Source of the DNA: Comamonas serinivorans
Lineage (GTDB): Bacteria; Pseudomonadota; Gammaproteobacteria; Burkholderiales; Burkholderiaceae_C
DNA: 64,000 bases
Direction: 5' to 3'
Assembly (NCBI RefSeq): GCF_002158865.1
Contig: NZ_CP021455.1
Coordinates: 1,096,835 to 1,160,834, forward strand
Shown: positions 4,618 to 47,039 of the stretch, one piece after another
Numbering within the stretch: the first letter of the stretch is position 1
How the letters are laid out: each line of letters begins with the position of its first letter
Notes under the pieces: generated by a model
The model's database searches: none
What the model saw: only the letters and a program-made list of their open reading frames with translations
Told to the model about the DNA's origin: nothing
Program-made: the position numbers and the translations under genes

Positions 4618-6603
4618 TCACTCGGGTGAGGGCGTCGGATCAGGGTGCCGCCTGCAGCCGTCAGTCGCCGGCTGCAACAGGTCTTGCACGCGTGCGCGCA
4701 TGGTCTCCAGCGTCTGCGCTTCGGGGGGCATGGCCTCGCCCACGCTCAGGCCCACCGGGCTGAAGGTCCCACGCCGGAATGGCTTGGTCATGGCGCCCGT
4801 GGGTTCGATGCGCGAGAAGTAGCTGCCCCAGAGGTTGGTCAGCGCCATGGGCACCACGGGCACGCTCAGGCCGTCGGCGCGCGCCTGCTCCAGGATCTTC
4901 AGCACCCCGCTCTTGAACGCACCCAGCTCGCCGTCGCGCGTGATGGCGCCTTCGGGGAAGATGGCCAGCAGCTCGCCTTCGCGCAGCACCTGGGCGGCTT
5001 CGACGAAGGCGCGCTCGTAGGCCGCGGGGTCGTCGCGTGCGGGGGCGATGGGGATGGCCTTGGCGAGCTTGAACAGCCAGCCCAGCACGGGCACCTTGAA
5101 GATCTGGTGGTCCATGATGAAGCGGATGGGCCGCGGGCTGGCCGCCATCAGCAGCACGGCGTCGATGAAGCTGACGTGGTTGGCGATGAGCACGGCCGGA
5201 CCGTCGGCCGGGATGTGGTCACGCCCGGTGATGCGGAAGCGGTACACCAGCTTGGTGAGCACCCAGGCGTGAAAGCGCAGCCAGTACTCGGGCACCAGGA
5301 AGAAGATGTAGGCCGCCACCAGCGCATTGGCGATGCCGGTGAACAGGAAGATCTGCGGGATGGAGAAGCCGGCCTGCAGCAGCGCGCCCGCGATCACGGC
5401 CGAGGCGATCATGAACAGCGCGTTGAGGATGTTGTTGGCCGCGATGATGCGCGCGCGGTGCGAGGGCCGGGCGCGCAGCTGGATGAGCGCGTACATGGGC
5501 ACGCTGAACAGGCCGGTGAACATCGACATCAGGCCCAGGTCGGCCATCACGCGCCAGTGCGCGCCCTGTTGCAGAAAGCCGCCCACGTCGAACAGGCCAC
5601 TGGCGGGCGGCGCGGGCAGGCTGCGCGTGGCGAAGAACAGGTCGATGGCGAACACCGTCATGCCGATGGCGCCCACGGGCACCAGCCCGATCTCGACCTG
5701 GTGGCCCGACAGCTTTTCGCACAGCAGCGCCCCCACGCCGATGCCGACCGAGAACACGGCCAGCAGCAGCGAGGCGACGTGGGCGTCGCAGTGCAGCACT
5801 TCTTTGGCAAAGGCCGGAAACTGGCTGAGGAACACAGCGCCGAAGAACCACATCCACGAGATGCCCAGCAGCGAGCGGAACACGGCCAGCTGCTCGTGCG
5901 CCAGGCGCAGGTTGCGCCAGGTTTCGGTCACAGGGTTCCAGTTCACCTGCAAGCCGGGGTCGGTGGCCGGCGACACAGGGATGAACTGCGCCGCAAGCCG
6001 CCCCAGCAGGGCCAGCACCACGCACGAGATGCCCACCCATTCGGGCCCCACCTGCGGCACCACCACCAGCACCCCGCCCACCAGCTGGCCCAGCAAGATG
6101 GCGACGAAGGTGCCCATTTCGACCATGCCGTTGCCGCCCGTCAGTTCGCGCTCGGACAGGTGCTGCGGCAGGTAGGCGAACTTCACCGGGCCGAACAGGG
6201 TGGAGTGCAGGCCCATGAGGAAGGTGCACAGCAGCAGCACCGGCACGTTGGCGCTGAAGAAGCCCCAGGCCGCCAGGGCCATGATGGCCACCTCCAGCCA
6301 TTTGACGAAGCGGATCAGCGCGCGCTTTTCCAGCTTGTCGGCCAGCTGGCCGCTGGTGGCCGAGAACACCAGATAGGGCAGGATGAACAGCGCGCCGATC
6401 ACCAGGCCCGCCATGTCGGCCGGCAGCCAGCTCACCTGCAGCATGTAGGTCACCATCACGGTGAACGCGAACTTGAAGAGGTTGTCGTTCGCGGCGCCGG
6501 CAAACTGGGTCCAAAAAAACGGCGCAAAGCGGCGCTGGCCCAGCAAGGCGAACTGCCCGGAGGGCGCTTGGCCGGCCTGGGCCTGGCGGGTCGATTCGGT
6601 CAT
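4618..6603 (-). CDS. MFS lysophospholipid transporter fused to acyltransferase (LplT/Aas-like)
   Basis: Twelve-TM MFS body followed by a PlsC-type acyltransferase domain with NHVSFIDAVLL (HX4D) and FPEGAITRDG. Start trimmed to MTESTRQ. Confidence 0.8.
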   Translation of the reverse strand: MTESTRQAQAGQAPSGQFALLGQRRFAPFFWTQFAGAANDNLFKFAFTVMVTYMLQVSWLPADMAGLVIGALFILPYLVFSATSGQLADKLEKRALIRFVKWLEVAIMALAAWGFFSANVPVLLLCTFLMGLHSTLFGPVKFAYLPQHLSERELTGGNGMVEMGTFVAILLGQLVGGVLVVVPQVGPEWVGISCVVLALLGRLAAQFIPVSPATDPGLQVNWNPVTETWRNLRLAHEQLAVFRSLLGISWMWFFGAVFLSQFPAFAKEVLHCDAHVASLLLAVFSVGIGVGALLCEKLSGHQVEIGLVPVGAIGMTVFAIDLFFATRSLPAPPASGLFDVGGFLQQGAHWRVMADLGLMSMFTGLFSVPMYALIQLRARPSHRARIIAANNILNALFMIASAVIAGALLQAGFSIPQIFLFTGIANALVAAYIFFLVPEYWLRFHAWVLTKLVYRFRITGRDHIPADGPAVLIANHVSFIDAVLLMAASPRPIRFIMDHQIFKVPVLGWLFKLAKAIPIAPARDDPAAYERAFVEAAQVLREGELLAIFPEGAITRDGELGAFKSGVLKILEQARADGLSVPVVPMALTNLWGSYFSRIEPTGAMTKPFRRGTFSPVGLSVGEAMPPEAQTLETMRARVQDLLQPATDGCRRHPDPTPSPE

Positions 6604-6901
6604 GGGGGCTTGGGTCCTGTGACGGCCTGGGGAAATGCGAGTGTGCGGCGCAGATTGTGAAGCCATGGCCGGCCGCACGGCCAGCGCCTGGACAGGCGGC
6701 GACGCCGCCAGGCTTGGTCGGATGCGTCGTCGTCCCCATCGACGCGGCGAACAGCTACGGTGAGTGGAGAGGACCAAGAGGGCAGGCCTGGGGCATTCGC
6801 CTGAGGACAGGGCGGCCACGCCGCCTCGCAGCGTCGCCCGAGGTGCCGGACGCGCGGCGGCCGGTGGACTCGGTGGGCGGCAGCGCGAACGCGACCCGGC
6901 A

Positions 6902-7753
6902 TCAGCGCCGCCGCATGGCCCAGCCGATGGGCACCACCGCCAGCGCCGCCACCGCGTGCTTGAGGCTGTGGCCGGCCACCCAGCCCTGGGTCAGCTCGAA
7001 CACGGCGTGGTCGCCCAGCTCCAGCACCTTGGCGGCGATGTAGGCCAGCACCACCCAAAGCCAGCGCACCCCCAGGCCGTCCGGCCGGTTGGGACTCAGG
7101 CCCAGACCCACCAGCAGCGCCAAGCCGGCGCCTTGCACCAGCGCCCAGGGCGTCATGTTGCCCACCTGCCAAGCCCACAGGGCCGCGCTGGCCGAGGCCA
7201 GCAGCAGCGGCAGCGGCAGCGCGCGACCCAGGCGGGGGCTCACGCGGTCGGCCACAGCCAGGCCGATCACGCCGGCAAAGGCCAGCGACATGCCGAGCCG
7301 GTCCACGGCCAGGCCCGCATCGCCGGGCGCCCAGTGGTAGACGCTGGAGCCCGCGGCCGTGGCGATCAGGCCCAGCACCACCCATCGCACGAGCACCATG
7401 CAAGTATGGTCGGCCATTCGATCATGGATGAAGGTAGATGAACCGATACCCGATGAAAAGATGGCGGCTCGCCGCCACAGCCACAGCGCCGCCAGGACGA
7501 ACGGTGCGTTGCTGAGCACGTCCAGGGCGTGCGGCAGTGCGCCCCAGGCGCGCTGGTCGGCGAAGTCGTGGTAGCCGGCGGGCAAGGGTGCGGCGGGCAG
7601 GCCGGCGGCCAGCACCACGGCGGCCAGCAAGGCCAGCAGCACGAGCCACTCGGCGCGGCGCAAGGGACCGAGGGCAGGGTGGGCGGGTTGGACGACGCCG
7701 GCCACGCCGGTAGACGGGGACGGGCGAGCGGCGGGCGGGCGAGCGTGTGGCAT
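6902..7753 (-). CDS. polytopic membrane protein, ceramidase (alkaline phytoceramidase)-like family
   Basis: YHDFADQR..G.P...DVLSN motif, several TM segments and SSVYHW/DRLGM motifs. Carries repeat copy R3 in frame (see findings). Confidence 0.5.
   Translation of the reverse strand: MPHARPPAARPSPSTGVAGVVQPAHPALGPLRRAEWLVLLALLAAVVLAAGLPAAPLPAGYHDFADQRAWGALPHALDVLSNAPFVLAALWLWRRAAIFSSGIGSSTFIHDRMADHTCMVLVRWVVLGLIATAAGSSVYHWAPGDAGLAVDRLGMSLAFAGVIGLAVADRVSPRLGRALPLPLLLASASAALWAWQVGNMTPWALVQGAGLALLVGLGLSPNRPDGLGVRWLWVVLAYIAAKVLELGDHAVFELTQGWVAGHSLKHAVAALAVVPIGWAMRRR
7403..7451. repeat. nested-palindrome repeat family, copy R3 (inside CDS 6902..7753)
   Basis: AGTATGG ... TTCGATCATGGATGAA ... CCGATACCC. 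Translated in frame as SGIGSSTFIHDRMADHTC. Locally AT-rich third positions. Confidence 0.6.
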
Positions 7754-17142: not shown

Positions 17143-17195
17143 CCAGTATGGGTTGGTTGCCGTTGATGAAAAAACGGCAATGAGCTTATACCCCC
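17143..17195. repeat. nested-palindrome repeat family, copy R8
   Basis: CCAGTATGGG ... TTGCCGTT-GATGAAAA-AACGGCAA ... CTTATACCCCC. Between ugd and the GIY-YIG/DUF4357 gene. Confidence 0.85.
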
Positions 17196-27512: not shown

Positions 27513-27730
27513 GGCGAGGTCCTTGGCAAAAACCGACGGCTGACGAGGGACGGGCACGGCGGGCATGCCGTGCGCGGGTTCACTGCCCGGCCAGCTTTGC
27601 AAGCCTGGGCGGCCGAGGCTGTGCTTTAGGCGTCAGCGCAGGCCGCAGATGCCGTGCCTGGCCGGTGGCGAACGCCCGCCTGCGGCCGCGGAGCGCGCGG
27701 CGGCCAGGCGGACTAAAATCACCGGCTTCG

Positions 27731-27847
27731 CACCAAGGAGCGCTGCAGTTGGCCCAGGCCTTGCCTGGCCGGGCCTGTCAGGCTTGGTGCGGAACGTGTC
27801 GCGCCGGCCACGCCTGCGCTGGCGCGTGGTGTCAACGGCGCTCACCT
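27731..27847 (+). promoter_or_regulatory. SAH (S-adenosylhomocysteine) riboswitch in the metH leader
   Basis: CCAAGGAGCGCTGC (27733-27746) ... CAGGCTTGG (27779-27787) ... CAACGGCGCTCACC (27833-27846) match the conserved SAH-element cores (AGGAGCGCUGC / CAGGCUCGG / AACGGCGCUCAC). P1 is CCAAG/CTTGG and extra hairpins occupy the variable positions. CTCACCTG (27841-27848) can pair with CAGGTGAG (27872-27879), which contains the metH RBS. Confidence 0.75.
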
Positions 27848-27883
27848 GTTGTGTTGCTTGTCGGTTTTTTGCAGGTGAGTGTG

Positions 27884-30652
<2,769 letters not shown>

Positions 30653-31420: not shown

Positions 31421-32581
31421 TCACCCTGGCTGGCGCAGCGTCACCAGGCCGTTCAGCACCTGATCGAGCCCGCCGACGACGGAGATCTTGTCGATGCGCT
31501 CGGCCACGCGCTCCAGCGTTTCCAGCTCCTTCATGCGCAGGGCGACGGGGTTGCCCTCCATCACCTTGGCGGTGTTCAACAGCGAACGCGTGGCCGCCGT
31601 TTCCTCGCGGCGGCGGATCACGTTGGCCTGGGCCGACTTTTCGGCCTCCACGACCTGGGCGAGGATGGTCTTCATCTCGCCGGGCAGGATGATGTCTTTC
31701 ACGCCCACGCTGTCCAGCGCCACGCCCGATTCAGCCAGGCGCTCGCGCACCTGGGCCAGCACGGCGCCATCGATGGCGGCCTTGTTTTCCAGCAACGCAT
31801 CCAGGTTCTGTTCGCCCACGGCGGCGCGCAGGCCGAATTGCAGCTCGCGGTAGACGTGGTCGGCTGGCTTGGGCATGCGCGCCAGCGCGCGCTGCACGTC
31901 GGTGAAGTGCCACACGGCCGAGAGGTTCAGTCGCAGGCCCACCTTGTCACGGGTCAGGATTTCCTGGCCATTCACCTCGGCGATCTGCGCTCGCAGGTCC
32001 ACGGTGCTCACGCTCACCTGACGGTTGAAGCGCCAGAAGCCATGCACGCCTGCCGGCAGCAGCGCTTGCATCTGGCCGTCCAGCGTGAGCACGCCAGCGT
32101 GGAACTCGGGCACCTGCACCAGCAGCACGCCGTCCAGGCCGCGCACGGCGCGCGGGCGCAGTGCCACGCTGTGCAGCTTGGCCAGCAACTCGGCGGGCAG
32201 GCGCGCGTCGGCGCTCAGGTCGACCACGTCCACGCGCTGTTCGCGCAGGCCGCGCCAGAACAGCTGGCGCGTGGACGGCGGCAGGATCTCGACCAGCACG
32301 CCGTCTTCGTGGCGCAGGCCGACCTCGGTTTCGCCCAGCACCACCTGCACGAACTCGCGGGCCAGCAGGGCCGGCTCGTGGGCTACGAAGTAGTCGGCCA
32401 GCTCGTGCTCAAAGCGCGCCGGCGCGTCCGGTTTGCCCAGCGAAAAGCGTTCCAGCGTCACATCGTCCAGGCCTGTGAACACGCGGTGCTTGCCCGGGCC
32501 AAACAGGCCGGCGAAATCGCCATCGCGCAGCAGCAGCGCGCGTTCGTGCTTTTTGACGGTGAAAATGGTGAATCCCAGCAT
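31421..32581 (-). CDS. SPFH/Band-7 (slipin-like) domain protein without TM segment
   Basis: C-terminal half: VGVKDIILPGEMK.ILAQVVEAEK.AQANVIRRREETAATRSLLNTAK is typical SPFH plus coiled-coil. N-terminal ~180 aa form an extra beta-rich region. RBS GGGAGAG. Confidence 0.75.
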   Translation of the reverse strand: MLGFTIFTVKKHERALLLRDGDFAGLFGPGKHRVFTGLDDVTLERFSLGKPDAPARFEHELADYFVAHEPALLAREFVQVVLGETEVGLRHEDGVLVEILPPSTRQLFWRGLREQRVDVVDLSADARLPAELLAKLHSVALRPRAVRGLDGVLLVQVPEFHAGVLTLDGQMQALLPAGVHGFWRFNRQVSVSTVDLRAQIAEVNGQEILTRDKVGLRLNLSAVWHFTDVQRALARMPKPADHVYRELQFGLRAAVGEQNLDALLENKAAIDGAVLAQVRERLAESGVALDSVGVKDIILPGEMKTILAQVVEAEKSAQANVIRRREETAATRSLLNTAKVMEGNPVALRMKELETLERVAERIDKISVVGGLDQVLNGLVTLRQPG

Positions 32582-32608
32582 GTTGCTCTCCCGGTGTGTT
32601 GTTGGTCA

Positions 32609-32660
32609 TGGGTATGGCCGTGTCGTCATTGATGATCAGTCGCAAAAATTGCCATACCCA
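32609..32660. repeat. nested-palindrome repeat family, copy R14
   Basis: TGGGTATGGC / GCCATACCCA perfect 10-bp outer arms. Interior TCATTGATGA. Lies just upstream of the SPFH start. Confidence 0.8.
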
Positions 32661-32933
32661 AGTTCTGTTCAAGGTGCCCAGCTCGCACAGGCTGCGGGCG
32701 ATCGGCGGGGTGCCGGCGCGCGTGGTCGTGCTCCCGGTTGTGTTGCTGGCACTGGCCTGGGCCAGGTGCACGGCCGCACAACCGCGATGGCGGCTGGCGC
32801 GCCAGGCACCGAAGCGCGAGGCACAGGCAGCCTGTGCGGGCAAGGTGCGCCGGGCGGCAGGACCAAGCCATTCGCCAAGCGCCGCCTTGCCAGGGCGGGT
32901 GGGGCTTTCGCCCCCATCCAAGCGGTGCAAGCA

Positions 32934-33040
32934 CCGCGGCAATGGGCGGGAATCGAACCCGCAGCCGCCACCGAAGTCGCGGTGTTCAACCATGAACAAG
33001 TCTTGGACCGAAACCAAGCGTCACCTCAGCCCATCCGCGG
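32934..33040 (-). ncRNA. tRNA-like structured RNA 3 (canonical T-arm, extended bulged stem)
   Basis: Minus strand: closing stem CCGCGGATGG / CCAT-TG-CCGCGG and a canonical T-arm GCGGG-TTCGATT-CCCGC. Internal hairpins are CTTGG-TTTCGGT-CCAAG, TGTTCA-TGGT-TGAACA, and CCGCGAC-TTCG-GTGGCGG (UUCG tetraloop). It begins ~85 nt downstream of promoter P1. Confidence 0.55.
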
Positions 33041-33134
33041 CATACCGCCCACCCAAGAACGGGTCTGGCGGGCGGCACCGGGCCGCATGCATGCGGCACC
33101 TCGTGCGGATGACTGCGTCCGACAGCAGGTGTCT

Positions 33135-33150
33135 TGCAGACGCCGTGCCA
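33135..33150 (-). promoter_or_regulatory. sigma-54 promoter P1 (divergent from rtcR)
   Basis: Minus strand reads TGGCACGGCGTCTGCA, with GG and GC elements at the exact consensus spacing (TGGCAC-N5-TTGCW). Confidence 0.7.
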
Positions 33151-33280
33151 ACTTCCGGCCCAGGCCGTTTCCGCGTGGAGGCCGCTGCGCCAATGCCTTG
33201 ATTTGCAAGCGGTTCGGTGCCCCTGGCCCGCTGACCTGCGTGTCAGCGGGCGATCGTCGGTGTTTGCTAGACTGAGGACC

Positions 33281-33310
33281 CTTGATTCATCCGGCGCGTT
33301 CTTGATTCAG
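33281..33310 (+). promoter_or_regulatory. candidate UAS direct repeats CTTGATTCA x2 upstream of P1 / at rtcR start
   Basis: CTTGATTCATCC (33281-92) and CTTGATTCAG (33301-10), plus a related CTTGATTTGCAAG at 33197-33209. They lie 130-160 bp upstream of P1 on its template. Confidence 0.35.
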
Positions 33311-33312
33311 CC

Positions 33313-34965
33313 ATGAAACCCATTCACGTCATCACCTTCCTGGGCACCCAGCTGGACAGCGGCAACGGTGCCGGCCGCTGGGAGAAGTGGCGGCCCACCG
33401 TGGCGCTGACCCAGCACGAGGACATGGAGGTCGCGCGGCTGGACCTGCTGCTGACCGGGCCCAGCCACCGGGCGCTGGCCGAGCGCGTGCGCGCCGACAT
33501 CGGCACGGTGTCGCCCGCCACCGAGGTCGTGCTGCACGAGTTGGCCGTGGACGATCCCTGGGACTTCGACGTCGTCTACACGCAGCTGTTCGATTGGGCC
33601 CGCGCGCAGGCCTTCGATACCGAGGCCGCGCAGTACTGGGCGCACATCACCACCGGCACGCATGTGGCGCAGATCTGCCTGTTCCTGCTGACCGAGTCGC
33701 GCGTGCTGCCCGGGGTGCTGTGCCAGACCTCGCCGCCCAAGCGGCAGCGCGAGGGCGCGGCCGGTGCCTACACGCTGATCGACCTCGACCTCTCGCGCTA
33801 CGACGCCATCGCCCAGCGCCATGCGGCCGACCAGCGCGATGCAGTGGCCTTCCTGAAAAGCGGCATCGCCACGCGCAATGCGCGCTTCAACGCGCTCATC
33901 GACGAGGTCGAGCGCGTGGCCGTGCGCTCCACCGCGCCGGTGCTGTTCGTGGGGCCCACGGGCGCGGGCAAGTCCTTCCTGGCCCGGCGCATGCACGAGC
34001 TGAAGAAATCGCGCCACCAGATCAACGGCGCCTTCGTCGAAGTCAACTGCGCCACGCTGCGTGGCGACGGCGCGGCCTCGACGCTGTTCGGCCACAAGCG
34101 CGGTGCTTTCACCGGCGCCGCCACCGACCGGCCCGGCCTGCTGCGCGCCGCCGATGGTGGGCTGCTGTTCCTCGACGAAATCGGCGAGCTGGGGGCCGAC
34201 GAGCAGGCCATGCTGCTCATGGCCATCGAAGACAAGCGCTTCTACCCCCTGGGTTCGGACCGCGAGGTGACCAGCGACTTTCAGCTGGTGGCGGGCACCA
34301 ACCGCGACCTGCGCGCCGAGGTCGCCGCGGGGCGGTTTCGCGAAGACCTGTTCTCGCGCATCAACCTGTGGACCTACGAGCTGCCTGGCCTGGCGGGCCG
34401 GCCTGAGGACATCGAACCCAACGTCGACTACCTGCTCACCCGCCATGCGCAAGCCTCGCGCCGCGCGGCCCGCTTCAACGTCGAAGCGCGCCGCGCCTAC
34501 CTGCGCTTTGCGCAAAGCGGCGAAGCGCTGTGGCGCGGCAATTTCCGCGACCTGTATGCCAGCGTGACGCGCCTGGCGACCCTGGCCGAGGGCGGGCGCA
34601 TCACCGAGCCGCTGGTGGTGGCTGAGATCAAACGGCTGCGCTGGATGTGGACGCGCGACAGCGCGGTGGCGGCGCCCGGCGCGCGCGCCTCGGGGGGCTC
34701 GCCGGGGGCGATGGCGGTCGATGCGGCGAGCGTGGACCTGGCCGACTTCTACGACGAAGCGGCCCTGGAGCAGATCGACCTGTTCGACCGCGTGCAGCTG
34801 CAGGGCGTCATCGCGGTGTGCCAGCGCTCGCGCACGCTGTCGGACGCGGGGCGCCAGCTGTACCAGGCCTCGCGGGCGCAACGCGCGGCGTTGAACGATT
34901 CGGACCGCCTGCGCAAGTACCTGGCCAAGTTCAACCTGAGCTGGGACCGCGTCAGCACACGATGA
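33313..34965 (+). CDS. rtcR: sigma-54-dependent transcriptional regulator RtcR (CARF-AAA+-HTH)
   Basis: Collinear over the full length with E. coli RtcR as I recall it: WEKWRPTV N-terminal region, HITTGTHVAQICLFLL, GPTGAGKSFLARR, GAFTGA loop, FLDEIGELG, and C-terminal DRLRKYLAKF HTH. Confidence 0.85.
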   Translation: MKPIHVITFLGTQLDSGNGAGRWEKWRPTVALTQHEDMEVARLDLLLTGPSHRALAERVRADIGTVSPATEVVLHELAVDDPWDFDVVYTQLFDWARAQAFDTEAAQYWAHITTGTHVAQICLFLLTESRVLPGVLCQTSPPKRQREGAAGAYTLIDLDLSRYDAIAQRHAADQRDAVAFLKSGIATRNARFNALIDEVERVAVRSTAPVLFVGPTGAGKSFLARRMHELKKSRHQINGAFVEVNCATLRGDGAASTLFGHKRGAFTGAATDRPGLLRAADGGLLFLDEIGELGADEQAMLLMAIEDKRFYPLGSDREVTSDFQLVAGTNRDLRAEVAAGRFREDLFSRINLWTYELPGLAGRPEDIEPNVDYLLTRHAQASRRAARFNVEARRAYLRFAQSGEALWRGNFRDLYASVTRLATLAEGGRITEPLVVAEIKRLRWMWTRDSAVAAPGARASGGSPGAMAVDAASVDLADFYDEAALEQIDLFDRVQLQGVIAVCQRSRTLSDAGRQLYQASRAQRAALNDSDRLRKYLAKFNLSWDRVSTR

Positions 34966-34966
34966 T

Positions 34967-35019
34967 GGGGTATGGTGTGAATGCCGTTTTCCATGAAACG
35001 GAAATGGCCTGATACTGCC
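34967..35019. repeat. nested-palindrome repeat family, copy R15
   Basis: GGGGTATGG ... TGCCGTTT-TCCATG-AAACGGAA ... CTGATACTGCC. Starts 2 nt after the rtcR stop. Confidence 0.85.
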
Positions 35020-35133
35020 AAGGCTAAGCATTCCACAATGGGATGATCAACAGCGCGCCCGCCGGCTTGCACGGTGGGGCGCATGCAGCGGCTGGCCCAA
35101 GGCCGGGTGCACGACATGGAGAGGGAGACGCAC

Positions 35134-35802
35134 ATGGCGCAGTACATCGAGGTCATTGGACAGGCCAGCGTGAGCGAAGTGGCCGTGGAGCAGCGCGTGG
35201 CGCTGACGGTGTCGCACCGCGGCAAGGGCGGTGGCATGTCGGACAAGGTGGTGGCGCACAAGGCCACGCAGCAGCGTGAGCGGGTGATCGCCACGCTGCT
35301 GGCCCACGGCATGCGGGAGCACGAATTGCATGAGGGCGGCATGGACAGCGGCACCTGGCACTTCAAGCGCAAGCGCGAGGTGCACCACAGCCACCGCATC
35401 CTGCTGATCTGCGAGGACGACGCGCGCCTGTTTGCGGCCCTCGAGGCCCTGGCGCCGCTGCAGGACGAGGGCGAGCTTGACTTGCAACTGGACATGCTGG
35501 ACGCCCGCTACGAGGTGCCGGCCGGTGCGCTGAGCGGGGCGCAGCAGGCGGCGGTGGCGCATGCCCGTGAGCATGCGAATGGCCTGGCGCAGGCTGCCGG
35601 CGTGGCGCTGGGCGCGGTGGTGCAGGTGCAAGAGCTGGCGCCGGCGCGGGAGCGTTCGGGTGCCTATGGCGAGTCCTGGTATGGCTTGGCCGCCGCAGGC
35701 GGCGCGGCTGCGGCACCGGCCATGACCCTCTTGGCGAGTAACCAGCGCACGCGCACCTTGAGCTACCGCGTGCGCTTTGCGCTGCAGCGGGCTGTGCCCT
35801 GA
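35134..35802 (+). CDS. SIMPL (DUF541)-like protein, no signal peptide
   Basis: YIEVIGQASVSEVAVEQRVALTV...A...A...A..LAQAAGVALGAVVQVQE pattern. RBS GGAGAGGGAG lies 6 nt upstream of the ATG at 35134. Confidence 0.55.
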   Translation: MAQYIEVIGQASVSEVAVEQRVALTVSHRGKGGGMSDKVVAHKATQQRERVIATLLAHGMREHELHEGGMDSGTWHFKRKREVHHSHRILLICEDDARLFAALEALAPLQDEGELDLQLDMLDARYEVPAGALSGAQQAAVAHAREHANGLAQAAGVALGAVVQVQELAPARERSGAYGESWYGLAAAGGAAAAPAMTLLASNQRTRTLSYRVRFALQRAVP

Positions 35803-35883
35803 CGCGCGTCGTTCGCCGCAACGCCTGGGCCGCGGTGGCCTGAATGTCGGTCCGACCGTGCACTGGGCAGGACGTGGGGCCAG

Positions 35884-35916
35884 TGAATCGCCTGCAACGC
35901 CCCTGCAGACGATTCA
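35884..35916 (+). promoter_or_regulatory. candidate enhancer (UAS) inverted repeat upstream of P2
   Basis: TGAATCG-N19-CGATTCA lies 110-140 bp upstream of P2. It shares the GATTCA core with sites upstream of P1 and P3. Confidence 0.35.
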
Positions 35917-36025
35917 TGGGCGGGCGTAGAGTTCGCATCGAAAGCGATACAGTGGGATCGTGTTCGGCGGTCATGGTGGCGTGCAGCCCTGCTGTCGCCC
36001 TGGGGTGAAGCGGGATGGGCCGAAC

Positions 36026-36041
36026 TGGCACGGCCGTTGCG
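36026..36041 (+). promoter_or_regulatory. sigma-54 promoter P2
   Basis: TGGCACGGCCGTTGCG is a perfect TGGCAC-N5-TTGC. The predicted start lies a few nt before the stem of tRNA-like RNA 1 (36059). Confidence 0.75.
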
Positions 36042-36058
36042 AAGGATGAGGTGAACGT

Positions 36059-36146
36059 GGGCCCAGGTCTGGGGTGGCGCAAAGCGAGCGCGTCGGACTT
36101 GAATCCGAAGGGTGCTGGTGCAAGTCCAGCCCCCAGACCTGGGCCC
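36059..36146 (+). ncRNA. tRNA-like / Y-RNA-like cloverleaf RNA 1
   Basis: Perfect 16-bp stem GGGCCCAGGTCTGGGG (36059-74) / CCCCAGACCTGGGCCC (36131-46). It encloses TG, D-like arm GCGC-AAAGCGA-GCGC, G, anticodon-like arm TCGGA-CTTGAA-TCCGA, AGGGT, and T-like arm GCTGG-TGCAAGT-CCAGC. There is no CCA end. Confidence 0.65.
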
Positions 36147-36292
36147 GCGAAACCCGGGGGCGCGACGGCGCGAGGCAGGCCTTGACGCGGCGGCCGTGTC
36201 GGCAAGGGTGCAGCGAGAAGCGGCTACCAGGCCGGTTGCCACGCATCGCAGCCCGTCGGCCAGCCCGACCGGCAGGGGATGAGGTCAGGTGT

Positions 36293-36373
36293 GCAACGGT
36301 CTGGCGCAGTTCAAGGAGAACGCCCGACCATGCATCGGGAAGGTGCTGGACAAGCCAGCCGCCAGACCGTTGC
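36293..36373 (+). ncRNA. tRNA-like / Y-RNA-like cloverleaf RNA 2 (paralogue of RNA 1)
   Basis: Perfect 14-bp stem GCAACGGTCTGGCG / CGCCAGACCGTTGC. It encloses CA, GTTC-AAGGA-GAAC, G, CCCGA-CCATGCA-TCGGG, AAGGT and GCTGG-ACAAG-CCAGC. The topology matches RNA 1, with compensatory changes in the D-like and anticodon-like stems. Confidence 0.65.
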
Positions 36374-36422
36374 GCATGGGCCAGTCCCCGTCCCGATCCA
36401 CACGAACACAGGGAGAGCGGCC

Positions 36423-39320
36423 ATGGGCCAGCACGACGAAGAGCACTCACCGGACGCCGGTGAGCACCCGGTGCCGCCGGCGCATGCGGCATCCGGGCTT
36501 GCCCAGGCGAACCCGGGCTGGGCAGCCGGCCAGCTTGCACGCGCCCGTGCGGCTTTGGCACAGGCACAGGTACAGCGGGACCCGTCAGGGCCCGACGCGG
36601 CCGGCGCTGCGTCATCCGCGGATACCGACGCTGCAGGCCACGCCGTGGCGCGTGCGCTGGCCAAGGTGAATGCCTGGCGCCAGGCCTTGGCCGGCATGGC
36701 CAGTGGCGAGCTGCAGGTGGGGTCGCGCACGCCGCTGCGCAACGTGGCGGCCTGGCTCACGCCGAATGTGTTGCACGGCGGATTCGCCTCGGGCCAGCTG
36801 ATGGCCGGGGGGCGCGCGCAAGCACACGAGACGCACTGGCTGGCGCAACTGGCGGCCGGTCAGCCGCTGGGCAGCACGCCGACCGACTGTGCCCGGATGG
36901 CCACGCTGGCGGCACAGCCCGTGGACCGCAGCACGCTGCCCCAGAAGCTGGACCGCACGCCGCTGAACGACTGGTTCCTGACCGAGGCGGGCCTGCAGCA
37001 GCTGATGCAGTGGCTGGACGACGGCCGCTGGCGCATCGCCGTGCCCGAGGAGGGCGCCTTGCTGGTGGTGGCCTGGCTGCTGAGGCAGGGGCATGACACC
37101 TCGGCGGCCCGCCTGTTGGACACCCTGTCGCCCTACTGGCACCGCGTTCGCTTTTACCCGCAGCCCGCTGCGACGCCCATGCCGGCGCTCGACCGCGTGA
37201 GCCTGCGCAGCGCGCAGGACGTGATGGCGCAGTTGAACCAGCTGCAGACGCCGCCCGCGGTGCTGGCCCAGCACCAAGCCATCCACGTGTGGCGCCCCTT
37301 GCTCGACGAGCTGGTGCTGCTGTGGCTGCAGGCCGTGCCCGGCGCGCTGCACGGCCCTGACGCTGCCGCGGCCCATGGCGAATCCGGGCGAGGTGCCGAC
37401 GGCGCCGTGACGGATGCGCTGCCGCGCCTGCGTGCCGGCACGCGCGAGGCCGAAGGCGGCTTGCCCCTGGCCGAGCCCGACGCCGACTGGCGGCAGCAGG
37501 CGGCGGCCTGGCGCCTGCGGGCGCGCGAGGCCGAGGCGCAGCACACGCGCAGCCGGGCGCACCGCAAGCCCGGCTCGCACGTGGCGCAGTTGTGGGCCAT
37601 GCTGGACCAGGTGCTGCAAGGTCAGGCCCTGAGCGAGGCACAGCGCCGCCGGCTGCGCTTTGTGCTGGCGTGCCAGGTCAGCGCCCATGGCGTGCCAGGC
37701 GATGCGAGGCACCACACCTGGCGCGCCGCGCAACGGGCGCAGACCGACACCGTGTGGCGCGCCCACTGGGCGTACGCACTGGCCGCGCGCGTGCAGGCGC
37801 AGGGCCCCTACGCGCTGGGCGATGGCCTGCCGGATCTGGACACCGCGCTGCAAGCTGCCACGGCGCAAGAGGCACAACAACATGCGCACCTGCCCGAAGG
37901 CACCGTGGTCTGGCCCAGCCTGCGCCGCAAGCTGCGCCGCGCCCACTTGGCCACCGTGCCGCAGCTGGTGCAAGCCGGCATCGTGCCGTCGAGCGAGGTG
38001 CTGGCCAGCGTGCTGCCCGGCACCACGGGCGCACAGCTGGCGCGCACCATGCCCGATGCGGCCAGCGCGCGGCTGCTGGGCGCGCTGTGGCGTGCGTTTC
38101 GCGGGCGACGCTCGGTGCTGCTGCTGAACCACGAGTCGCAGGTGCGCTTTCACGAGCTGCCCTGGGTGCTGCGCTTGCAGCAGCACGCCTGCGTGCCGGC
38201 GACGGCCGCCGGGACCGAGGGCGATTCGGCACATCGCTGGGACATGGCCGGCCTGGCGCGCAGCCAGGCGTTGGCGCAGCTGGATGCGGCCGCGCGCCTG
38301 GCGCTGACGCAATTCCCGCAATCGGCCTTCCCGAACCCGCTGCTGTGGGAGCTTCGCGCGCTGGCCGAGCAGGGTGGCTGGCAGCCGCCGTGGGTCGAAG
38401 ACATCGCGGCCGACATCTTCATGGGCAGCTTTGGGCCCAAGTTCGGGCAGGCCGTGCACGACGCGCTGCCCTGGTTGCAGGGCAGCCTGTATGCGCAGCA
38501 TTTCCAGCTCGACCTGGAGGCGCTGCGCCTGGCCATGGCGCCGGCCGTGGCCTGCCACGCGGCCTTTCAGCGTTACGCCGAAACGCCAGCGGGCTCACCC
38601 GGCAACCCCGCGGCCAAGCGCGAACAACAGGCCTTGCTGCAGCGCTATCACGCGGCGCCCGACCTGCTGGTGGCGCACCTGCGTGCGCGCACGGGCTGGT
38701 CGGCCGACGCCCGCGGCGTGGGCGCGAATGGCGCCGTCATCGAGCAGATGGGCCTGGTCAGCACGGCCAACTTCGCGCCGCTGGCGCAGCGCTTTGGCTG
38801 GGGCGTGGCCGGTGCCGGTTTGCGCGATGCCACGGCCCAGGCGCGCGAGCTCCAGGGGTGGGCGCAGGCCGCACGCACGGGCTTCGAGCGGCTGTGCGCG
38901 GGGCTGGACCTGGGCGTGCGCGAAGCCGGCGCCATGCTGGACAAGCCGCCAACCCAGATCCAGGCGACAAACCCGGCGGATGCCCATGCGGCAGCGACAG
39001 AAGCCCAGGCCGCCGACCGCCTGCTGGCCGAGCGCGTGCGCCGGGCCGCCACCAGCTGGCGCCAGGTCGTGCTGCTGCTGAGCCTGCTGCCCGCCGAGCA
39101 GCAGCGCGCCAACCTGCTGGGCATGCAGCGCCACCTCGCGGCCTGTGACACCCCCGCCAGCCGGGGCGTGACGCGCGCCCTGGCGCCCCAGCTGGCCGAC
39201 CTGATGGCCTGTGTGCAAGGCCAGGCGCGCGACGCCGGTCGGCCACCGTTCCACGGCTGGACCCAGCCAGGGCAGCGGGGCGTGCTGTTCACCCTGCGCC
39301 AGGGCCTGAAGGCCGGGTGA
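36423..39320 (+). CDS. large orphan protein (965 aa), predicted all-alpha, no recognised domain
   Basis: Longest frame in the region. RBS GGGAGAG upstream of the ATG at 36423. Ala/Leu/Gln/Trp-rich composition, versus an Arg/Gly-rich antisense ORF. Lies downstream of sigma-54 promoter P2 and the two tRNA-like RNAs. Confidence 0.6.
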   Translation: MGQHDEEHSPDAGEHPVPPAHAASGLAQANPGWAAGQLARARAALAQAQVQRDPSGPDAAGAASSADTDAAGHAVARALAKVNAWRQALAGMASGELQVGSRTPLRNVAAWLTPNVLHGGFASGQLMAGGRAQAHETHWLAQLAAGQPLGSTPTDCARMATLAAQPVDRSTLPQKLDRTPLNDWFLTEAGLQQLMQWLDDGRWRIAVPEEGALLVVAWLLRQGHDTSAARLLDTLSPYWHRVRFYPQPAATPMPALDRVSLRSAQDVMAQLNQLQTPPAVLAQHQAIHVWRPLLDELVLLWLQAVPGALHGPDAAAAHGESGRGADGAVTDALPRLRAGTREAEGGLPLAEPDADWRQQAAAWRLRAREAEAQHTRSRAHRKPGSHVAQLWAMLDQVLQGQALSEAQRRRLRFVLACQVSAHGVPGDARHHTWRAAQRAQTDTVWRAHWAYALAARVQAQGPYALGDGLPDLDTALQAATAQEAQQHAHLPEGTVVWPSLRRKLRRAHLATVPQLVQAGIVPSSEVLASVLPGTTGAQLARTMPDAASARLLGALWRAFRGRRSVLLLNHESQVRFHELPWVLRLQQHACVPATAAGTEGDSAHRWDMAGLARSQALAQLDAAARLALTQFPQSAFPNPLLWELRALAEQGGWQPPWVEDIAADIFMGSFGPKFGQAVHDALPWLQGSLYAQHFQLDLEALRLAMAPAVACHAAFQRYAETPAGSPGNPAAKREQQALLQRYHAAPDLLVAHLRARTGWSADARGVGANGAVIEQMGLVSTANFAPLAQRFGWGVAGAGLRDATAQARELQGWAQAARTGFERLCAGLDLGVREAGAMLDKPPTQIQATNPADAHAAATEAQAADRLLAERVRRAATSWRQVVLLLSLLPAEQQRANLLGMQRHLAACDTPASRGVTRALAPQLADLMACVQGQARDAGRPPFHGWTQPGQRGVLFTLRQGLKAG

Positions 39321-39710
39321 GCAGGTCGGGTGAGGTCAGGTGAAGCCAGCGGGGCCATGGGGCCCCATCTTCCAGGTTGGCCCGAATGGTGACCGTGGGT
39401 CTGGGTGCCGGTGCTGCCGCCCCAGGCGTTCGCTGTGGGCGCCTGGCGGACTGGCGCCGAGGAACGGAGGAGCTTGCGCGACAATCCGGCATCCGGTCCG
39501 GGCGAGGCTCGCTAGGACATGGCCATGGCGCGCGGCGGTCAGCACGCGGCGGTGTCGGCCCCGCAGCCGCGCGATCCCGGTGGTCGGGTGCAAGTGCCCT
39601 GTCGGCTTGCGTTCCACGCCAACAGGCCTGCTGCCGTGCCTCGTGCCATGTCAACCGTTGCTTGACGGTCGGCGGGCCCCGTGCCCACGCCGTGTTGTTC
39701 AGAAGTACCC

Positions 39711-40454
39711 ATGCCTTTACGCATCGACGAAGCCATCACCCAGCTGGATCACGGCTGGCTCAGCCATTTGAAATCGCAGGGTTACGGCGGCGATGCCTTG
39801 CGCCAGGCGATCGACCTGGTGCTGTACGCCCAACAGCAGGCGGCGGCGCGCAACAGCGCCGAGTTCAAGGCCGCCATCGCGCGCGTCAACCACCTGGTGG
39901 GGGCGGGCATCGCGTGTGACAACAACGGCGACTACCTGTACACGGCCGAGTGGCGCGACCCGGCTTGCGCCGGGCTGGGCTTCGCCATCGAATACGCGGC
40001 CGACCCGGCCAGCTGGCGGGCCGAGTTCCGCATGCCCGGCTGCTGGCCGCACACCGTGGACAACCTCGACATCACCGACACCCGCGCTGTGGACCACGAC
40101 TTTGCGCTCTGGCTGGCGCGCGCCAGTGCCCGCCATTTCACGCACCTGATCGAACGCCAGCTGCCCGAAGGCGAAGCACTGCGCGCGCCCTGTACGGCGG
40201 CCGTGCGGGCCGGCACCTGGGCCGAATTCGTGTGCCTGCACCCACTGCAACCCGTGGCCCGCCTGGGGCACGAGCGGCTGGAGCAGGCCGCCTGGTCGGC
40301 CCAATACCCCAGTGCCGCCCAGCGCGAGTTGCAGGCCCGCTTCGATGTGCAGAGCGCCTTGCTGCTGCGCTTGATCGTGGTTCAGCAGGCAGCATGGGCT
40401 TGGCATGAAGAGTATGGCGACAATCGCGATGACGATTCAACGGGAAGGCATTGA
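39711..40454 (+). CDS. orphan protein (247 aa), no recognised domain
   Basis: ORF between the 965-aa gene and rtcA on the same strand. The last ~15 codons and the stop lie in repeat copy R16. Confidence 0.5.
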   Translation: MPLRIDEAITQLDHGWLSHLKSQGYGGDALRQAIDLVLYAQQQAAARNSAEFKAAIARVNHLVGAGIACDNNGDYLYTAEWRDPACAGLGFAIEYAADPASWRAEFRMPGCWPHTVDNLDITDTRAVDHDFALWLARASARHFTHLIERQLPEGEALRAPCTAAVRAGTWAEFVCLHPLQPVARLGHERLEQAAWSAQYPSAAQRELQARFDVQSALLLRLIVVQQAAWAWHEEYGDNRDDDSTGRH

Positions 40455-40828: not shown

Positions 40829-40934
40829 AGTTTGGCTTGCGGTGGCTGAGCCGTGGCGAGGCGCAGGCGCCCTCGACGCCAAGTGCTTGATCCGGCAAGG
40901 GTTTGCGCGGCTCGCCTGTTGATTTGGCGGGGCC

Positions 40935-40950
40935 TGGCACGCCGCGTGCA
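40935..40950 (+). promoter_or_regulatory. sigma-54 promoter P3 (rtcA)
   Basis: TGGCACGCCGCGTGCA has correct GG/GC spacing and lies 38 nt upstream of the rtcA ATG. Confidence 0.65.
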
Positions 40951-40987
40951 ACGAGGATGGCCACACACAACTCAACTGGGAGCACAC

Positions 40988-42193
40988 ATGCCAACCGACG
41001 ACCAGGTGGAGGCGAAGCCGCGTCACCGTGACCCAGCTCGCACGGCCACCGCCGCAGACACCAAAAGCGTGACCGGCGCAGCGCAGACGGGCCGTGGCGC
41101 AGCCATCGAGATCGATGGCTCGCAGGGCGAGGGCGGCGGGCAGATCCTGCGCACGGCGCTGGCCTTGTCCATGATCACCGGCCAGCCGCTGCACCTGCGC
41201 GCCATCCGCGCCAAGCGGCCCAAGCCCGGGCTCATGCGCCAGCACCTGATGTGCGTGCAGGCGGCCGCGCAGGTCAGCGGGGCCCACATCAGCGGGGCCG
41301 AGCTGGGGGCCACCGAGTTGCGCTTCGCGCCGGGCCCGGTGCGGGCGAGCGCCTACGAATTTGCCATGGCCAGCGCAGGCAGCTGCATGCTGGTGCTGCA
41401 GACCGTGCTGCCGGCGTTGATGCTGGCCGATGCCCCCAGCACGCTGGTGCTGCGGGGCGGCACGCACAACCCCATGGCGCCCAGCTTCCACTTTGTGCGC
41501 GATGCCTTTGCGCCGCTGGTGCAGCGCCTGGGCGCCGGCCTGACGCTGCAGCTGCAGCGGCTGGGCTTTTACCCCGCAGGCGGTGGCGAGGTCACGGCCA
41601 CCATCACGCCTGCGGCCCGCCTGACCCCGTTCGACCTGACCGAGCGTGGCGAGCTGCAGCAGGGCGATGCTCTGTGCCTGACGCCGGGGCTGTCGGGGTC
41701 GATCGCGCGCCGCGAGCTGACGGCGCTGGGCCAGGCCATGGGCTGGGGCGAGGACCGCTTGCGCTTTGGCGAGGCCAGGCAGCACGAGGGGCCGGGCAAT
41801 GCCTTGATCGCCCGCCTGCGCTACGCCCACGTGACCGAGGTGTTCGTCGAGCTTGGGGCCCGCAACCTGTCGTCGGAGCAGGTGGCCGGCAAGCTGGTGC
41901 AGGCCATCCGGGCGTTTCAACGCCGGCCAGGTGCCGCGGTGGGCCCACACTTGGCCGACCAGCTGGTGCTGCTGCAGGCCCTGGCCGTGTGGCAGGCCGG
42001 ACGGACCGGCAGCCAGGCGGATGCGCCCCACGCCGATGTGCCCCAGGCGGATGTGCCGCAAGCACGCTTCTCGTGCAGCGAGGTGACCGAGCACTTGCGC
42101 ACCAACTGCGTGGTGATCGAACGCTTTCTGCCCGTGCGCTGCACGCTGACCCAGGGCCCTGTGTCCCGGGTGACGGTGCGCTGGGCGGGGTGA
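40988..42193 (+). CDS. rtcA: RNA 3'-terminal phosphate cyclase RtcA
   Basis: IEIDGSQGEGGGQILRTALALS..TG.P..L..IRA.R..PGL..QHL. RBS GGGAG upstream of the ATG at 40988. N-terminal ~35-aa extension and a 15-nt x3 in-frame repeat near the C-terminus. Confidence 0.85.
   Translation: MPTDDQVEAKPRHRDPARTATAADTKSVTGAAQTGRGAAIEIDGSQGEGGGQILRTALALSMITGQPLHLRAIRAKRPKPGLMRQHLMCVQAAAQVSGAHISGAELGATELRFAPGPVRASAYEFAMASAGSCMLVLQTVLPALMLADAPSTLVLRGGTHNPMAPSFHFVRDAFAPLVQRLGAGLTLQLQRLGFYPAGGGEVTATITPAARLTPFDLTERGELQQGDALCLTPGLSGSIARRELTALGQAMGWGEDRLRFGEARQHEGPGNALIARLRYAHVTEVFVELGARNLSSEQVAGKLVQAIRAFQRRPGAAVGPHLADQLVLLQALAVWQAGRTGSQADAPHADVPQADVPQARFSCSEVTEHLRTNCVVIERFLPVRCTLTQGPVSRVTVRWAG
42017..42061 (+). 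repeat. 15-nt x3 in-frame tandem repeat inside rtcA
   Basis: GCGGATGCGCCCCAC / GCCGATGTGCCCCAG / GCGGATGTGCCGCAA, encoding ADAPH-ADVPQ-ADVPQ. Confidence 0.7.
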
Positions 42194-46986: not shown

Positions 46987-47039
46987 CCAGTATGGGTTGA
47001 TTGTCGTTGTTCAAAAAACGGAAATGGCCGCATACTGGG
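46987..47039. repeat. nested-palindrome repeat family, copy R18
   Basis: CCAGTATGGG ... TTGTCGTT-GTTCAAAA-AACGGAAA ... GCATACTGGG. An extra half-arm GCAGTGTATGGC lies at ~46965. Confidence 0.85.

Follow-up and report, generated by a model that had tools for sequence, protein, structure and literature searches.

A stretch of 64,000 nt from the genome of Comamonas serinivorans (contig NZ_CP021455.1, positions 1,096,835 to 1,160,834; hereafter the window) carries on its minus strand, at 33018-32946, a tRNA-like element that lies 365 nt 5' of a gene for an SPFH/Band_7 protein and on the same strand as that gene, within a long leader that diverges from rtcR, the gene for the sigma-54-dependent activator RtcR. 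Comparison with related leaders makes it very probable that this element is homologous to a near-canonical tRNA cloverleaf found at a similar distance from the SPFH gene in other genera of the Burkholderiales. As far as the published summary of that class allows a judgement, the element is an eroded variant of a known predicted class, the b7a-tRNA (a tRNA associated with Band-7), and no new kind of RNA. The complete explanation, in which a diverged tRNA mimic of the b7a-tRNA type is made within an RtcR-controlled leader and enters into a partnership with the SPFH protein, is put forward here with about even confidence.

The b7a-tRNA was predicted beside Band-7 and RtcB genes by Burroughs and Aravind in 2016 (as summarised in 10.1101/312249); according to the summary by Wang et al. 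(2018, 10.1101/312249), it is sometimes exchanged with YrlA/Rsr, has been proposed to be redundant with YrlA, and lacks experimental validation. RtcR becomes active in response to tRNA fragments, or to nicked tRNAs, that end in a 2',3'-cyclic phosphate (PMC7790460, PMC10159003).

The cloverleaf of related loci and its reduced copy in the window

The comparison draws on 80 loci from Burkholderiales genomes, retrieved with the SPFH protein of the window, in nearly all of which one or two T arms lie 250-400 nt 5' of the SPFH start. Outside Variovorax, the T arm nearest SPFH sits in a near-canonical cloverleaf (TLE2) with the consensus UGGAUAGCUCAGUCGGGUAGAGCAACGnnCUnAUAAnnCGUCUGUCGCGGGUUCGAcUCCCGCUCCA, the four helices of which are 98.1% paired across 63 non-Variovorax sequences. 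Their covariation score is 0.355, where shuffling of the columns gives 0.107 (0/500) and sliding of the partners 0.077 or less. Each pair of the anticodon stem shows 28-35 double changes, and in the T stem-loop GGUUCGA and UCC are invariant in 63/63 of the non-Variovorax copies (alignment A3), with an outer stem that covaries. The relatives' copies score 35-52 bits with the Rfam tRNA model, which matches positions 4-67 in loci L047, L035, and L015; the acceptor stem is only 4-5 bp long. The anticodons called by ARAGORN differ from locus to locus (Thr, Ile, Val, Lys, Glu, Leu, and Pro), and in L041, L046, L057, and L078 the anticodon loop is swapped for GNRA or short loops. Because of the short acceptor, the varying anticodon, and the replacement of the loop by tetraloops in several lineages, the cloverleaf is a structural tRNA mimic and not a decoding tRNA.

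Directly 5' of the cloverleaf lies a mini-tRNA (TLE1), which in most loci ends within 1-5 nt of the acceptor strand of its neighbor and is composed of an acceptor stem of 6-7 bp that stacks on a T arm, a GG linker for the D arm, and a short, often GNRA-capped hairpin (for example L035:3161-3223 and its equivalents; alignments A4/A5). It is followed by NCCA in about 43 of 60 loci and looks like a substrate of the RNase P or CCA-enzyme type. Its model, R2, matches 46 loci, and the fitted alignment has a pairing of 87.6%, where shuffles have 71.9%, and a covariation score of 0.418, where shuffles have 0.165 (0/500), values that have to be read with the leaning of this alignment toward the model; in an independent permutation test, the mean best complement was 6.28, compared with 5.66 +/- 0.07. 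The remainder of the leader in these relatives contains a 16-bp 5' stem (8 covarying pairs), a 6-bp hairpin (5 covarying pairs), and a ~41-bp 3' stem (28 covarying pairs), together with the conserved motifs AUGCCGC, GGUCGAAAGACC, and CUGUAACGGCACC, and the conserved structure reaches to within 20-40 nt of the ribosome-binding site, where it ends in CUGUAACGGCACC. Neither the mini-tRNA nor the remaining covarying parts of the leader are found in Rfam 15. An extra match to the mini-tRNA model (29.3 bits) was observed at L067:3401-3466, about 4 kb 5' of the regular copy on a contig of an uncultured member of the Burkholderiaceae.

The link to the window is provided by a covariance model (R1) of the 63 non-Variovorax cloverleaf copies, into which no Variovorax sequence entered. 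It matches the window at 33000-32938 on the minus strand with 24.6 bits (E 2.8e-6), the next window match reaching 9.5 bits, and it matches five Variovorax loci with 39.5-42.5 bits (E ~1e-12). The SPFH protein of the window is 82-85% identical to its Variovorax homologues, and the leader was aligned with 15 Variovorax leaders (16 sequences). The D arm, which reads GCUC-AGUCGGGUA-GAGC in the non-Variovorax genera and to which R1 aligns the Variovorax form GCUCA-UGGU-UGAGC, corresponds in the window to hairpin B, UGUUCA-UGGU-UGAACA, with a C:G to U:A compensation at columns 165:176 and with the GG kept in its loop. The anticodon arm, CCGUG-CUAACCA-CACGG in Variovorax, corresponds to hairpin C, CCGCGAC-UUCG-GUGGCGG, in which the 7-nt loop has been swapped for a UUCG tetraloop, and the T arm, GCGGG-UUCGAUU-CCCGC with its 5-bp stem, is unchanged. 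The whole Variovorax structure, which comprises the 5' hairpins P1-P3, hairpins A-C, the T arm, a local hairpin, and a GNRA-capped hairpin, is 98.1% paired, and double changes are seen in nine of its pairs (2.3 in shuffles, 0/500), which, coming from 16 close relatives, amounts to modest evidence; compensatory changes specific to the window are present in hairpins A and B.

An earlier, sequence-only reading of this DNA had proposed a tRNA-derived non-coding element in a long structured leader, transcribed from a promoter divergent from rtcR and containing a genuine tRNA T arm and three internal hairpins, one of them UUCG-capped, and this proposal agrees with what was found. The hairpins are compensatorily conserved in the 15 Variovorax loci and, by the comparison of related leaders, lead back to the D arm and the anticodon arm of the covarying cloverleaf of other genera; they are thus not the unconserved additions to an ordinary tRNA pseudogene or att remnant that the reading had named as the outcome that would speak against it.

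Of all parts of the window copy, only the T arm has remained canonical. The first tRNA-like unit, the conserved acceptor helix, and the anticodon loop are missing, the D loop is the 4-nt UGGU, and UUCG occupies the anticodon position, so that the canonical tRNA geometry, with its acceptor stem of 7 bp, anticodon loop of 7 nt, and D loop of 8-11 nt, is not reached; ARAGORN calls no tRNA at the element, and Rfam RF00005 gives no match there at E up to 10 (29 bits being the threshold). The T-loop core GGTTCRANTCC occurs once in the 64 kb against 0.10 expected occurrences, and all that Rfam reports at the T arm is a 17-nt tmRNA T-arm fragment (beta-tmRNA model, local, 13.6 bits). Around hairpin A, ~55 nt are missing relative to Polaromonas, and at E up to 0.01 the mini-tRNA model R2 matches neither the window nor Variovorax. 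Hairpin A itself, CUUGG-UUUCGGU-CCAAG, is kept in Variovorax, shows an A:U to G:C double change in 4/16 sequences including the window, and may be a remnant of the mini-tRNA. The folding of the 116-nt element alone gives a weak single-sequence signal (z = -1.78), and the case for the element therefore rests on conservation. A metagenome scan with the pattern TCATGGTNGANCACCG, aimed at Variovorax-type copies, matched at least 120 stretches, and R1 found nothing at the matched sites in 80 of these.

Promoter, leader, and competing helices

The sigma-54-type promoter, a pattern match of the form TGGCAC-N5-CTGCA, has the correct spacing of its -24 GG and -12 GC, is located beside rtcR and faces away from it, and is conserved in relatives. 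From its position, the start of transcription is expected near 33125, and it is from this site that the distance of ~85 nt to the element, proposed earlier, holds. A motif of the same type is present 530-594 nt 5' of SPFH in 26/80 related loci, comprising all 15 Variovorax, the Polaromonas and Rhodoferax loci, L029, and L078, and in these loci rtcR is directly divergent wherever the contig extends far enough; L064 has a divergent rtcR, and neither the promoter motif nor a T arm was detected there. Judged from sequence, transcription of the leader would depend on RtcR and RpoN, and the leader element is probably co-transcribed with SPFH.

Genes in the window, the G+C content of which is 69.7%, were called by combining codon-position GC with Pfam and NCBIfam, and the coordinates of the features are collected in Table 1. 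The SPFH start proposed earlier is borne out, and the earlier statement that the leader holds no credible open reading frame (ORF) is likewise borne out, as the ORFs of the leader lack a coding signature (third-position GC of 0.66-0.75 vs 0.86-0.92 in real genes). A protein-coding reading of the leader was rejected for this reason. An exact-sequence look-up of the SPFH protein gave no record, and with the same protein as the query against viral contigs no relatives were found. Next to the leader, rtcR is directly divergent, and RtcA follows further on, with no rtcB and no rsr gene within the 64-kb window; tblastn with the Rsr protein of L078 returned nothing in the window, and no TROVE or vWA_Ro60 domains were found among the window ORFs tested.

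Table 1. Features of the leader and of the neighboring genes, in the coordinates of the window
Feature	Position	Strand	Remarks
metH	27665-30652	+	behind SAH riboswitch
Orphan ORF, 206 aa	30723-31343	-	
SPFH/Band_7 gene, 386 aa	31421-32581	-	downstream of leader; Pfam Band_7 E 1e-25; start 32581
SPFH ribosome-binding site GGGAGAG	32592-32586	-	
Palindromic repeat copy (GGGUAUGGC...GCCAUACCC)	32659-32610	-	R14 of the sequence-only reading; by eye, from inverted ends
Non-coding leader, ~545 nt	32582 to ~33125	-	
Long imperfect stem domain	32675-32850	-	3' half of leader; base formed by 12-nt complement, 32838-32827 with 32695-32684
Second UUCG hairpin	32817-32806	-	in sequence
7-bp hairpin	32837-32821	-	in sequence
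GNRA-capped hairpin GGGGC-GAAA-GCCCC	32915-32901	-	
Local hairpin GCGGUG-CUUG-CACCGC	32937-32922	-	
T arm	32962-32946	-	canonical
Hairpin C	32982-32965	-	anticodon-arm homologue
Hairpin B	32998-32983	-	D-arm homologue
Hairpin A	33018-33002	-	5-bp stem, 7-nt loop
AUGCCGC motif	33043-33037	-	3' of P1-P3
Hairpin P3	~33079-33042	-	in region 33042-33121
Hairpin P2	33100-33081	-	in region 33042-33121
Hairpin P1	33121-33106	-	in region 33042-33121
Sigma-54-type promoter TGGCACGGCGTCTGCA	33135-33150	-	pattern match
rtcR, sigma-54-dependent activator with CARF-type RtcR domain	33313-34965	+	Pfam RtcR 6e-76, Sigma54_activat 5.5e-49
SIMPL/DUF541 gene	35074-35802	+	
Orphan ORF, 1013 aa	36279-39320	+	
RtcA	40853-42193	+	

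The 5' 270 nt of the leader are highly conserved within Variovorax. Hairpins P1-P3 show 95-99% pairing and four double changes in the Variovorax alignment, P3 being the homologue of the 16-bp stem that covaries at 8 pairs in other genera, and the UGCCG core of the AUGCCGC motif is invariant in 62/62 non-Variovorax leaders. The GNRA-capped hairpin, which the sequence-only reading had also pointed out, is conserved in Variovorax, its equivalent GGUCGAAAGACC is almost invariant in other genera, and its stem covaries across genera (GGUC/GACC vs GGGGC/GCCCC) around a constant GAAA loop. The second UUCG hairpin and the 7-bp hairpin noted in the same place are present in the sequence, the latter in competition with a 12-nt perfect long-range complement that forms the base of a long imperfect stem domain. 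This domain folds with z = -4.26 (0/200 shuffles as good) and is presumably homologous to the 41-bp 3' stem with 28 covarying pairs of other genera; the whole leader folds with z = -4.46 vs shuffles. The repeat copy marked earlier as R14 is real and carries the inverted ends of a palindromic repeat family. By eye it resembles families D1/D4, of which the window holds at least 11 copies; it is missing from the copies named by the repeat tool, and it is not conserved in related leaders. A pairing of the promoter with hairpin C drawn by RNAalifold was discarded because the promoter is not transcribed.

It has to be noted that one structural proposal of the sequence-only reading, an extended closing helix with a 2-nt bulge on which the T arm would be stacked, did not withstand comparison. 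Such a helix of 10 bp, 33040-33031 with 32945-32934, can be drawn, and it belongs to the minimum-free-energy structure only if the fragment ends at 32930; in contexts of 231 nt and 554 nt, the minimum-free-energy structures do not contain it. With its outer 4-6 bp it overlaps the local hairpin at 32937-32922, so that the two are mutually exclusive, and it is the local hairpin that is 99.1% paired in Variovorax and that is preserved in L007 and L009 by a G:C to A:U compensatory change, which breaks a pair of the closing helix. The outer CCGC/GCGG pairs of the closing helix never vary in the Variovorax alignment, and its inner AUGG/CCAU pairs in the window only, the segment being 57.5% paired across Variovorax. 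As a conserved feature the bulged helix thus fails the comparative test on the Variovorax alignment, and it is at most an alternative conformer.

Proposed role, rival explanations, and known RNAs

In the model proposed here, the element would be transcribed from the RtcR-activated sigma-54 promoter as part of the ~545-nt leader, so that its synthesis would follow the sensing of damaged tRNA by RtcR, the predicted promoter thus providing an obvious induction condition. The "elbow" formed by the T loop and the GG would be recognized by a protein or RNase, and the tRNA-like module, recognized and possibly excised by tRNA-handling factors, would then become the RNA partner or scaffold of the SPFH protein, comparable to a Y RNA with Ro60, with the two together handling or repairing cleaved tRNA or rRNA. 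The 80 relatives show which parts survive erosion, namely the T arm, the GG-containing D-type hairpin, and the spacer stem, with the anticodon loop and the full acceptor being dispensable, and this selective retention points to the elbow shape rather than decoding. A role of the element as a trans-acting cofactor is, nevertheless, a tentative proposal that we hold with more doubt than confidence. The abstract of the 2016 work of Burroughs and Aravind reportedly presents SPFH/Band-7 modules, together with "a novel tRNA-like molecule", as proposed cofactors with a scaffolding function, in parallel to Ro60/Y RNAs. By analogy, and as far as the summarised sources go, the comparison with Y RNAs would hold for the proposed role and not for structure or family. 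Rtc repair is widespread, its substrates and RNA cofactors are poorly understood, and Y RNAs are the only RNA partners that have been studied. The window element taken alone is an expected component of a known operon type; the leads at the level of the family are the CCA-ended mini-tRNA within a covarying leader and the frequent joining of the unit to tRNA arrays.

Several points weigh against this explanation. The transcription, the processing, and the contact with the SPFH protein are all inferred for the element. The two sigma-54 motif matches in the window compare with 1.22 expected, a count that alone is not above chance, and the promoter call was made on position and conservation. The window copy scores far below its relatives with R1 (24.6 vs ~40 bits), and having no conserved acceptor helix it is a less likely target for recognition of the RNase P type, which weakens the case. 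With rtcB absent from the window, the repair context is incomplete here, and membership in the b7a-tRNA class was judged from a second-hand summary (10.1101/312249).

A wider interpretation, doubtful though possible, is that the b7a-tRNA forms the core of a larger, ~500-nt multi-domain leader RNA that heads Band-7-RtcB units in the Burkholderiales. Its parts may follow the order of a 16-bp 5' stem flanked by CCGGUG/AUGCCGC, the NCCA-ended mini-tRNA, the abutting cloverleaf, the GNRA hairpin, and the ~40-bp stem, and it may stand either behind an RtcR/sigma-54 promoter or behind a tRNA array and HNH gene, with the window holding a streamlined Variovorax version. If this is true, RNase P processing of the larger RNA could yield a mini-tRNA ending in CCA and a tRNA mimic, and the two together could make up the RNA part of an RNA-repair particle based on SPFH. 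No description of the RtcR/sigma-54 context, of the reduced Variovorax form, of the mini-tRNA, or of the size of the leader was found, the 2016 work being known by its summary.

The most substantial rival explanation, though a rather unlikely one, is a leader that acts purely in cis, with the tRNA-like fold and competing helices controlling the stability, processing, or translation of the SPFH mRNA, for instance as an entry site for RNase P or RNase E, and with no RNA acting in trans. The continuous ~545-nt leader with its highly conserved 5' 270 nt, the z of -4.46 for the whole leader, the mutually exclusive helices, and the extension of conserved structure in other genera to 20-40 nt from the ribosome-binding site, where it ends in CUGUAACGGCACC, would all be expected of such a leader. 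However, covariation favors one conformer, the local hairpin, where it discriminates between the helices, no terminator-like site or helix sequestering the ribosome-binding site was found (three terminator-like matches in 32300-36400 correspond to the chance level), and the part nearest the ribosome-binding site is unconserved within Variovorax and holds the mobile repeat; cis and trans roles are, moreover, compatible. An improbable alternative sees the window element as a decaying relic, a module losing its function and drifting where rtcB has left the locus, in line with its having the lowest R1 score of all copies, with the loss of the D and anticodon loops, of the first tRNA-like unit, and of the conserved acceptor stem, and with a neighborhood that lacks rtcB and holds unrelated orphan genes. 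Yet the reduced architecture is common to all 15 Variovorax relatives, which retain SPFH-RtcB-RtcA, and this argues for an old, maintained variant; the differences specific to the window in hairpins A and B are compensatory and not disruptive, and T arm, GNRA hairpin, and P1-P3 have all stayed intact.

That the element is a sentinel or bait tRNA, cleaved by tRNases so that its cyclic-phosphate half feeds back on the CARF domain of RtcR or so that it soaks up a toxin, is quite improbable, even though RtcR senses cleaved tRNA (PMC7790460, PMC10159003), the anticodon loop of the relatives keeps tRNA-like features such as U33 with an identity that varies by lineage, and, for cyanobacteria, array tRNAs that are co-regulated with rtcB have been suggested to serve as a sponge (PMC8421152). 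The window, L041, L046, L057, and L078 have a stable tetraloop or short loop at the anticodon position, which means that the usual tRNase cleavage site is absent there, and the RNA would be made only once RtcR is already active, barring basal transcription. Very little favors a YrlA-type Y RNA with the bulged helix as its binding site for Ro60. YrlA does have a tRNA-like domain and is encoded in rtc operons (PMC4201824, 10.1101/312249), and weak YrlA-model matches of ~24 bits lie over the leader element in L035 and L078, but the argument of the sequence-only reading, which took a bulged long helix joined to a tRNA-like domain for a Y-RNA design, fails because the helix fails the comparative test. 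The window holds no Rsr/Ro60 gene and no YrlA match at E up to 10, the search with Rfam RF02553 (gathering 69 bits) in 32000-37500 returning nothing where the control, L078:11127-11259, scored 81.1 bits, and this true YrlA of L078 (81 bits) lies elsewhere in its operon. Least probable of all is a functionless tRNA pseudogene or att remnant of the ordinary kind. The element is indeed tRNA-derived, and many related loci have tRNA arrays nearby; its position relative to SPFH is, however, fixed across genera, covariation is strong, neither an integrase nor a direct repeat is present at the site, and D- and T-arm sequences that stay the same while the anticodon varies argue for a single origin and not for descent from different tRNA genes.

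Set beside known RNAs, the tRNA mimic of the window shares with the b7a-tRNA, as summarised, its place beside a Band-7 gene and, as far as rtcR and RtcA go, an Rtc neighborhood, and the cloverleaf of the relatives fits the description that it "strongly resembles an authentic tRNA". The window copy differs from that class in having no D loop, anticodon loop, or conserved acceptor stem and in a locus without rtcB, and the relatives' cloverleaf differs from the class as summarised in being one module of a ~500-nt covarying leader with an NCCA-ended mini-tRNA. In common with YrlA (RF02553; rsr-yrlBA-rtcBA operons), the element is a tRNA-shaped non-coding RNA in a repair operon presumably controlled by RtcR/sigma-54 that keeps D and T features and has neither a free CCA nor a functional anticodon, whereas it lacks a sequence or structure match to YrlA, a Ro60 partner gene, and a conserved Ro-binding stem. 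The topology of YrlA is also different, as a closed stem-loop forms its acceptor-like arm and the ends of the RNA leave via the anticodon-like stem, and L078 holds both YrlA and the leader element in one operon, at different places. With canonical tRNA (RF00005) the window copy shares a perfect T arm and an arrangement in which D-like, anticodon-like, and T hairpins follow one another in that order; it is unlike tRNA in being called by neither ARAGORN nor Rfam and in its 4-nt D loop, its UUCG, and the absence of a 7-bp acceptor and of CCA. The mini-tRNA of the relatives, with an acceptor stem on a T arm, a GG linker, and an NCCA tail, recalls the tRNA-like domain of tmRNA and minihelix mimics, and the T arm of the window matches the beta-tmRNA model locally; unlike tmRNA, the window has no tag reading frame, no pseudoknots, and no detectable mini-tRNA, and the 13.6 bits compare with a gathering threshold of 84.

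Gene orders in relatives and further observations

Downstream of SPFH, the relatives encode RtcB, often RlaP, which adds nucleotides to damaged tRNA ends (PMC12776372), and then RtcA, giving the order SPFH-RtcB-(RlaP)-RtcA. Most other genera (Aquabacterium, Roseateles, Ideonella, Rubrivivax, etc.) show the order tRNA array - HNH endonuclease - leader - SPFH - RtcB, and L021 and L022 the order rtcR, RtcB-RlaP-RtcA, tRNA array - HNH - leader - SPFH. In about 45/80 loci, a tRNA array (of 6-20 genes in those loci that were scanned) and with it an HNH gene stand directly 5' of leader-SPFH-RtcB on the same strand, examples among L020-L080 being L035:1332-3021, L047:5957-7421, and the whole of L021 and L022. 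These loci resemble the cyanobacterial L-arrays, in which co-regulation with rtcB is seen for tRNA arrays that have an HNH gene (PMC8421152); the window differs from them in having neither a tRNA array nor an HNH gene, and its element is no decoding tRNA. The arrangement suggests that the tRNA arrays are part of an RtcR-linked repair island, and a full-text literature search combining "tRNA array" with RtcR found nothing describing such a linkage.

In L078 (Albitalea terrae), Rsr and YrlB/YrlA are encoded between SPFH and RtcB, and both RNA systems occur in one operon (see L078:10915-11259). The leader tRNA mimic lies 5' of SPFH, and rsr is followed by a YrlB-like match (35 bits), a YrlA-like match (38 bits), and YrlA (81 bits), and then by rtcB. 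Weak R1 matches of 18-20 bits (E ~1e-4) were also seen between SPFH and rtcB in Variovorax (L001:9358-9407, L003:9355-9404, and L007:9354-9403), and these may represent a further small element containing a T arm, of which the window has no counterpart because its rtcB is missing.

Elsewhere in the window, in region 36026-36160 (+), a second sigma-54-type promoter, TGGCACGGCCGTTGCG, is present at 36026-36041, followed 27 nt further by a tRNA-like RNA at 36068-36138 that scores 52.8 bits with the Rfam tRNA model and has a 6-nt anticodon loop and no CCA. Its acceptor stem extends into a perfect ~16-bp stem, GGGCCCAGGUCUGGGG/CCCCAGACCUGGGCCC (z = -6.38), and it precedes the 1013-aa orphan ORF, with RtcA further on. 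This RNA is unmatched by R1, R2, and YrlA, and the one 14-nt T-arm motif of it that was searched for is absent from the 80 loci. Three ORFs with good coding statistics, of 206 aa, 1013 aa, and 257 aa (the last at 39681-40454 +), are presumed members of the RtcR regulon. None of them has a match in Pfam (also at relaxed settings), NCBIfam, or PADLOC, and tblastn with the 206-aa and 1013-aa proteins in the 80 loci gave no match; the 206-aa ORF sits at the place of rtcB in relatives.

A REP-like palindromic repeat, GTATG...CCGTT...AACGG...CATAC, of ~49-61 nt occupies at least 11 intergenic sites in the window (for example 17143-17191, 34967-35015, and 46987-47035), one of them directly after the rtcR stop and one in the SPFH leader just 5' of the ribosome-binding site. 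Rfam Bcj11 ("Burkholderia RNA 11") matches with 69 bits at 5794-5915 (-), inside the strongly coding ORF 4618-6990 (-), and this "sRNA" match may therefore be a conserved coding segment. An SAH riboswitch with a large insertion (48 bits) is found at 27729-27850 (+), 5' of or overlapping the start of the metH ORF.

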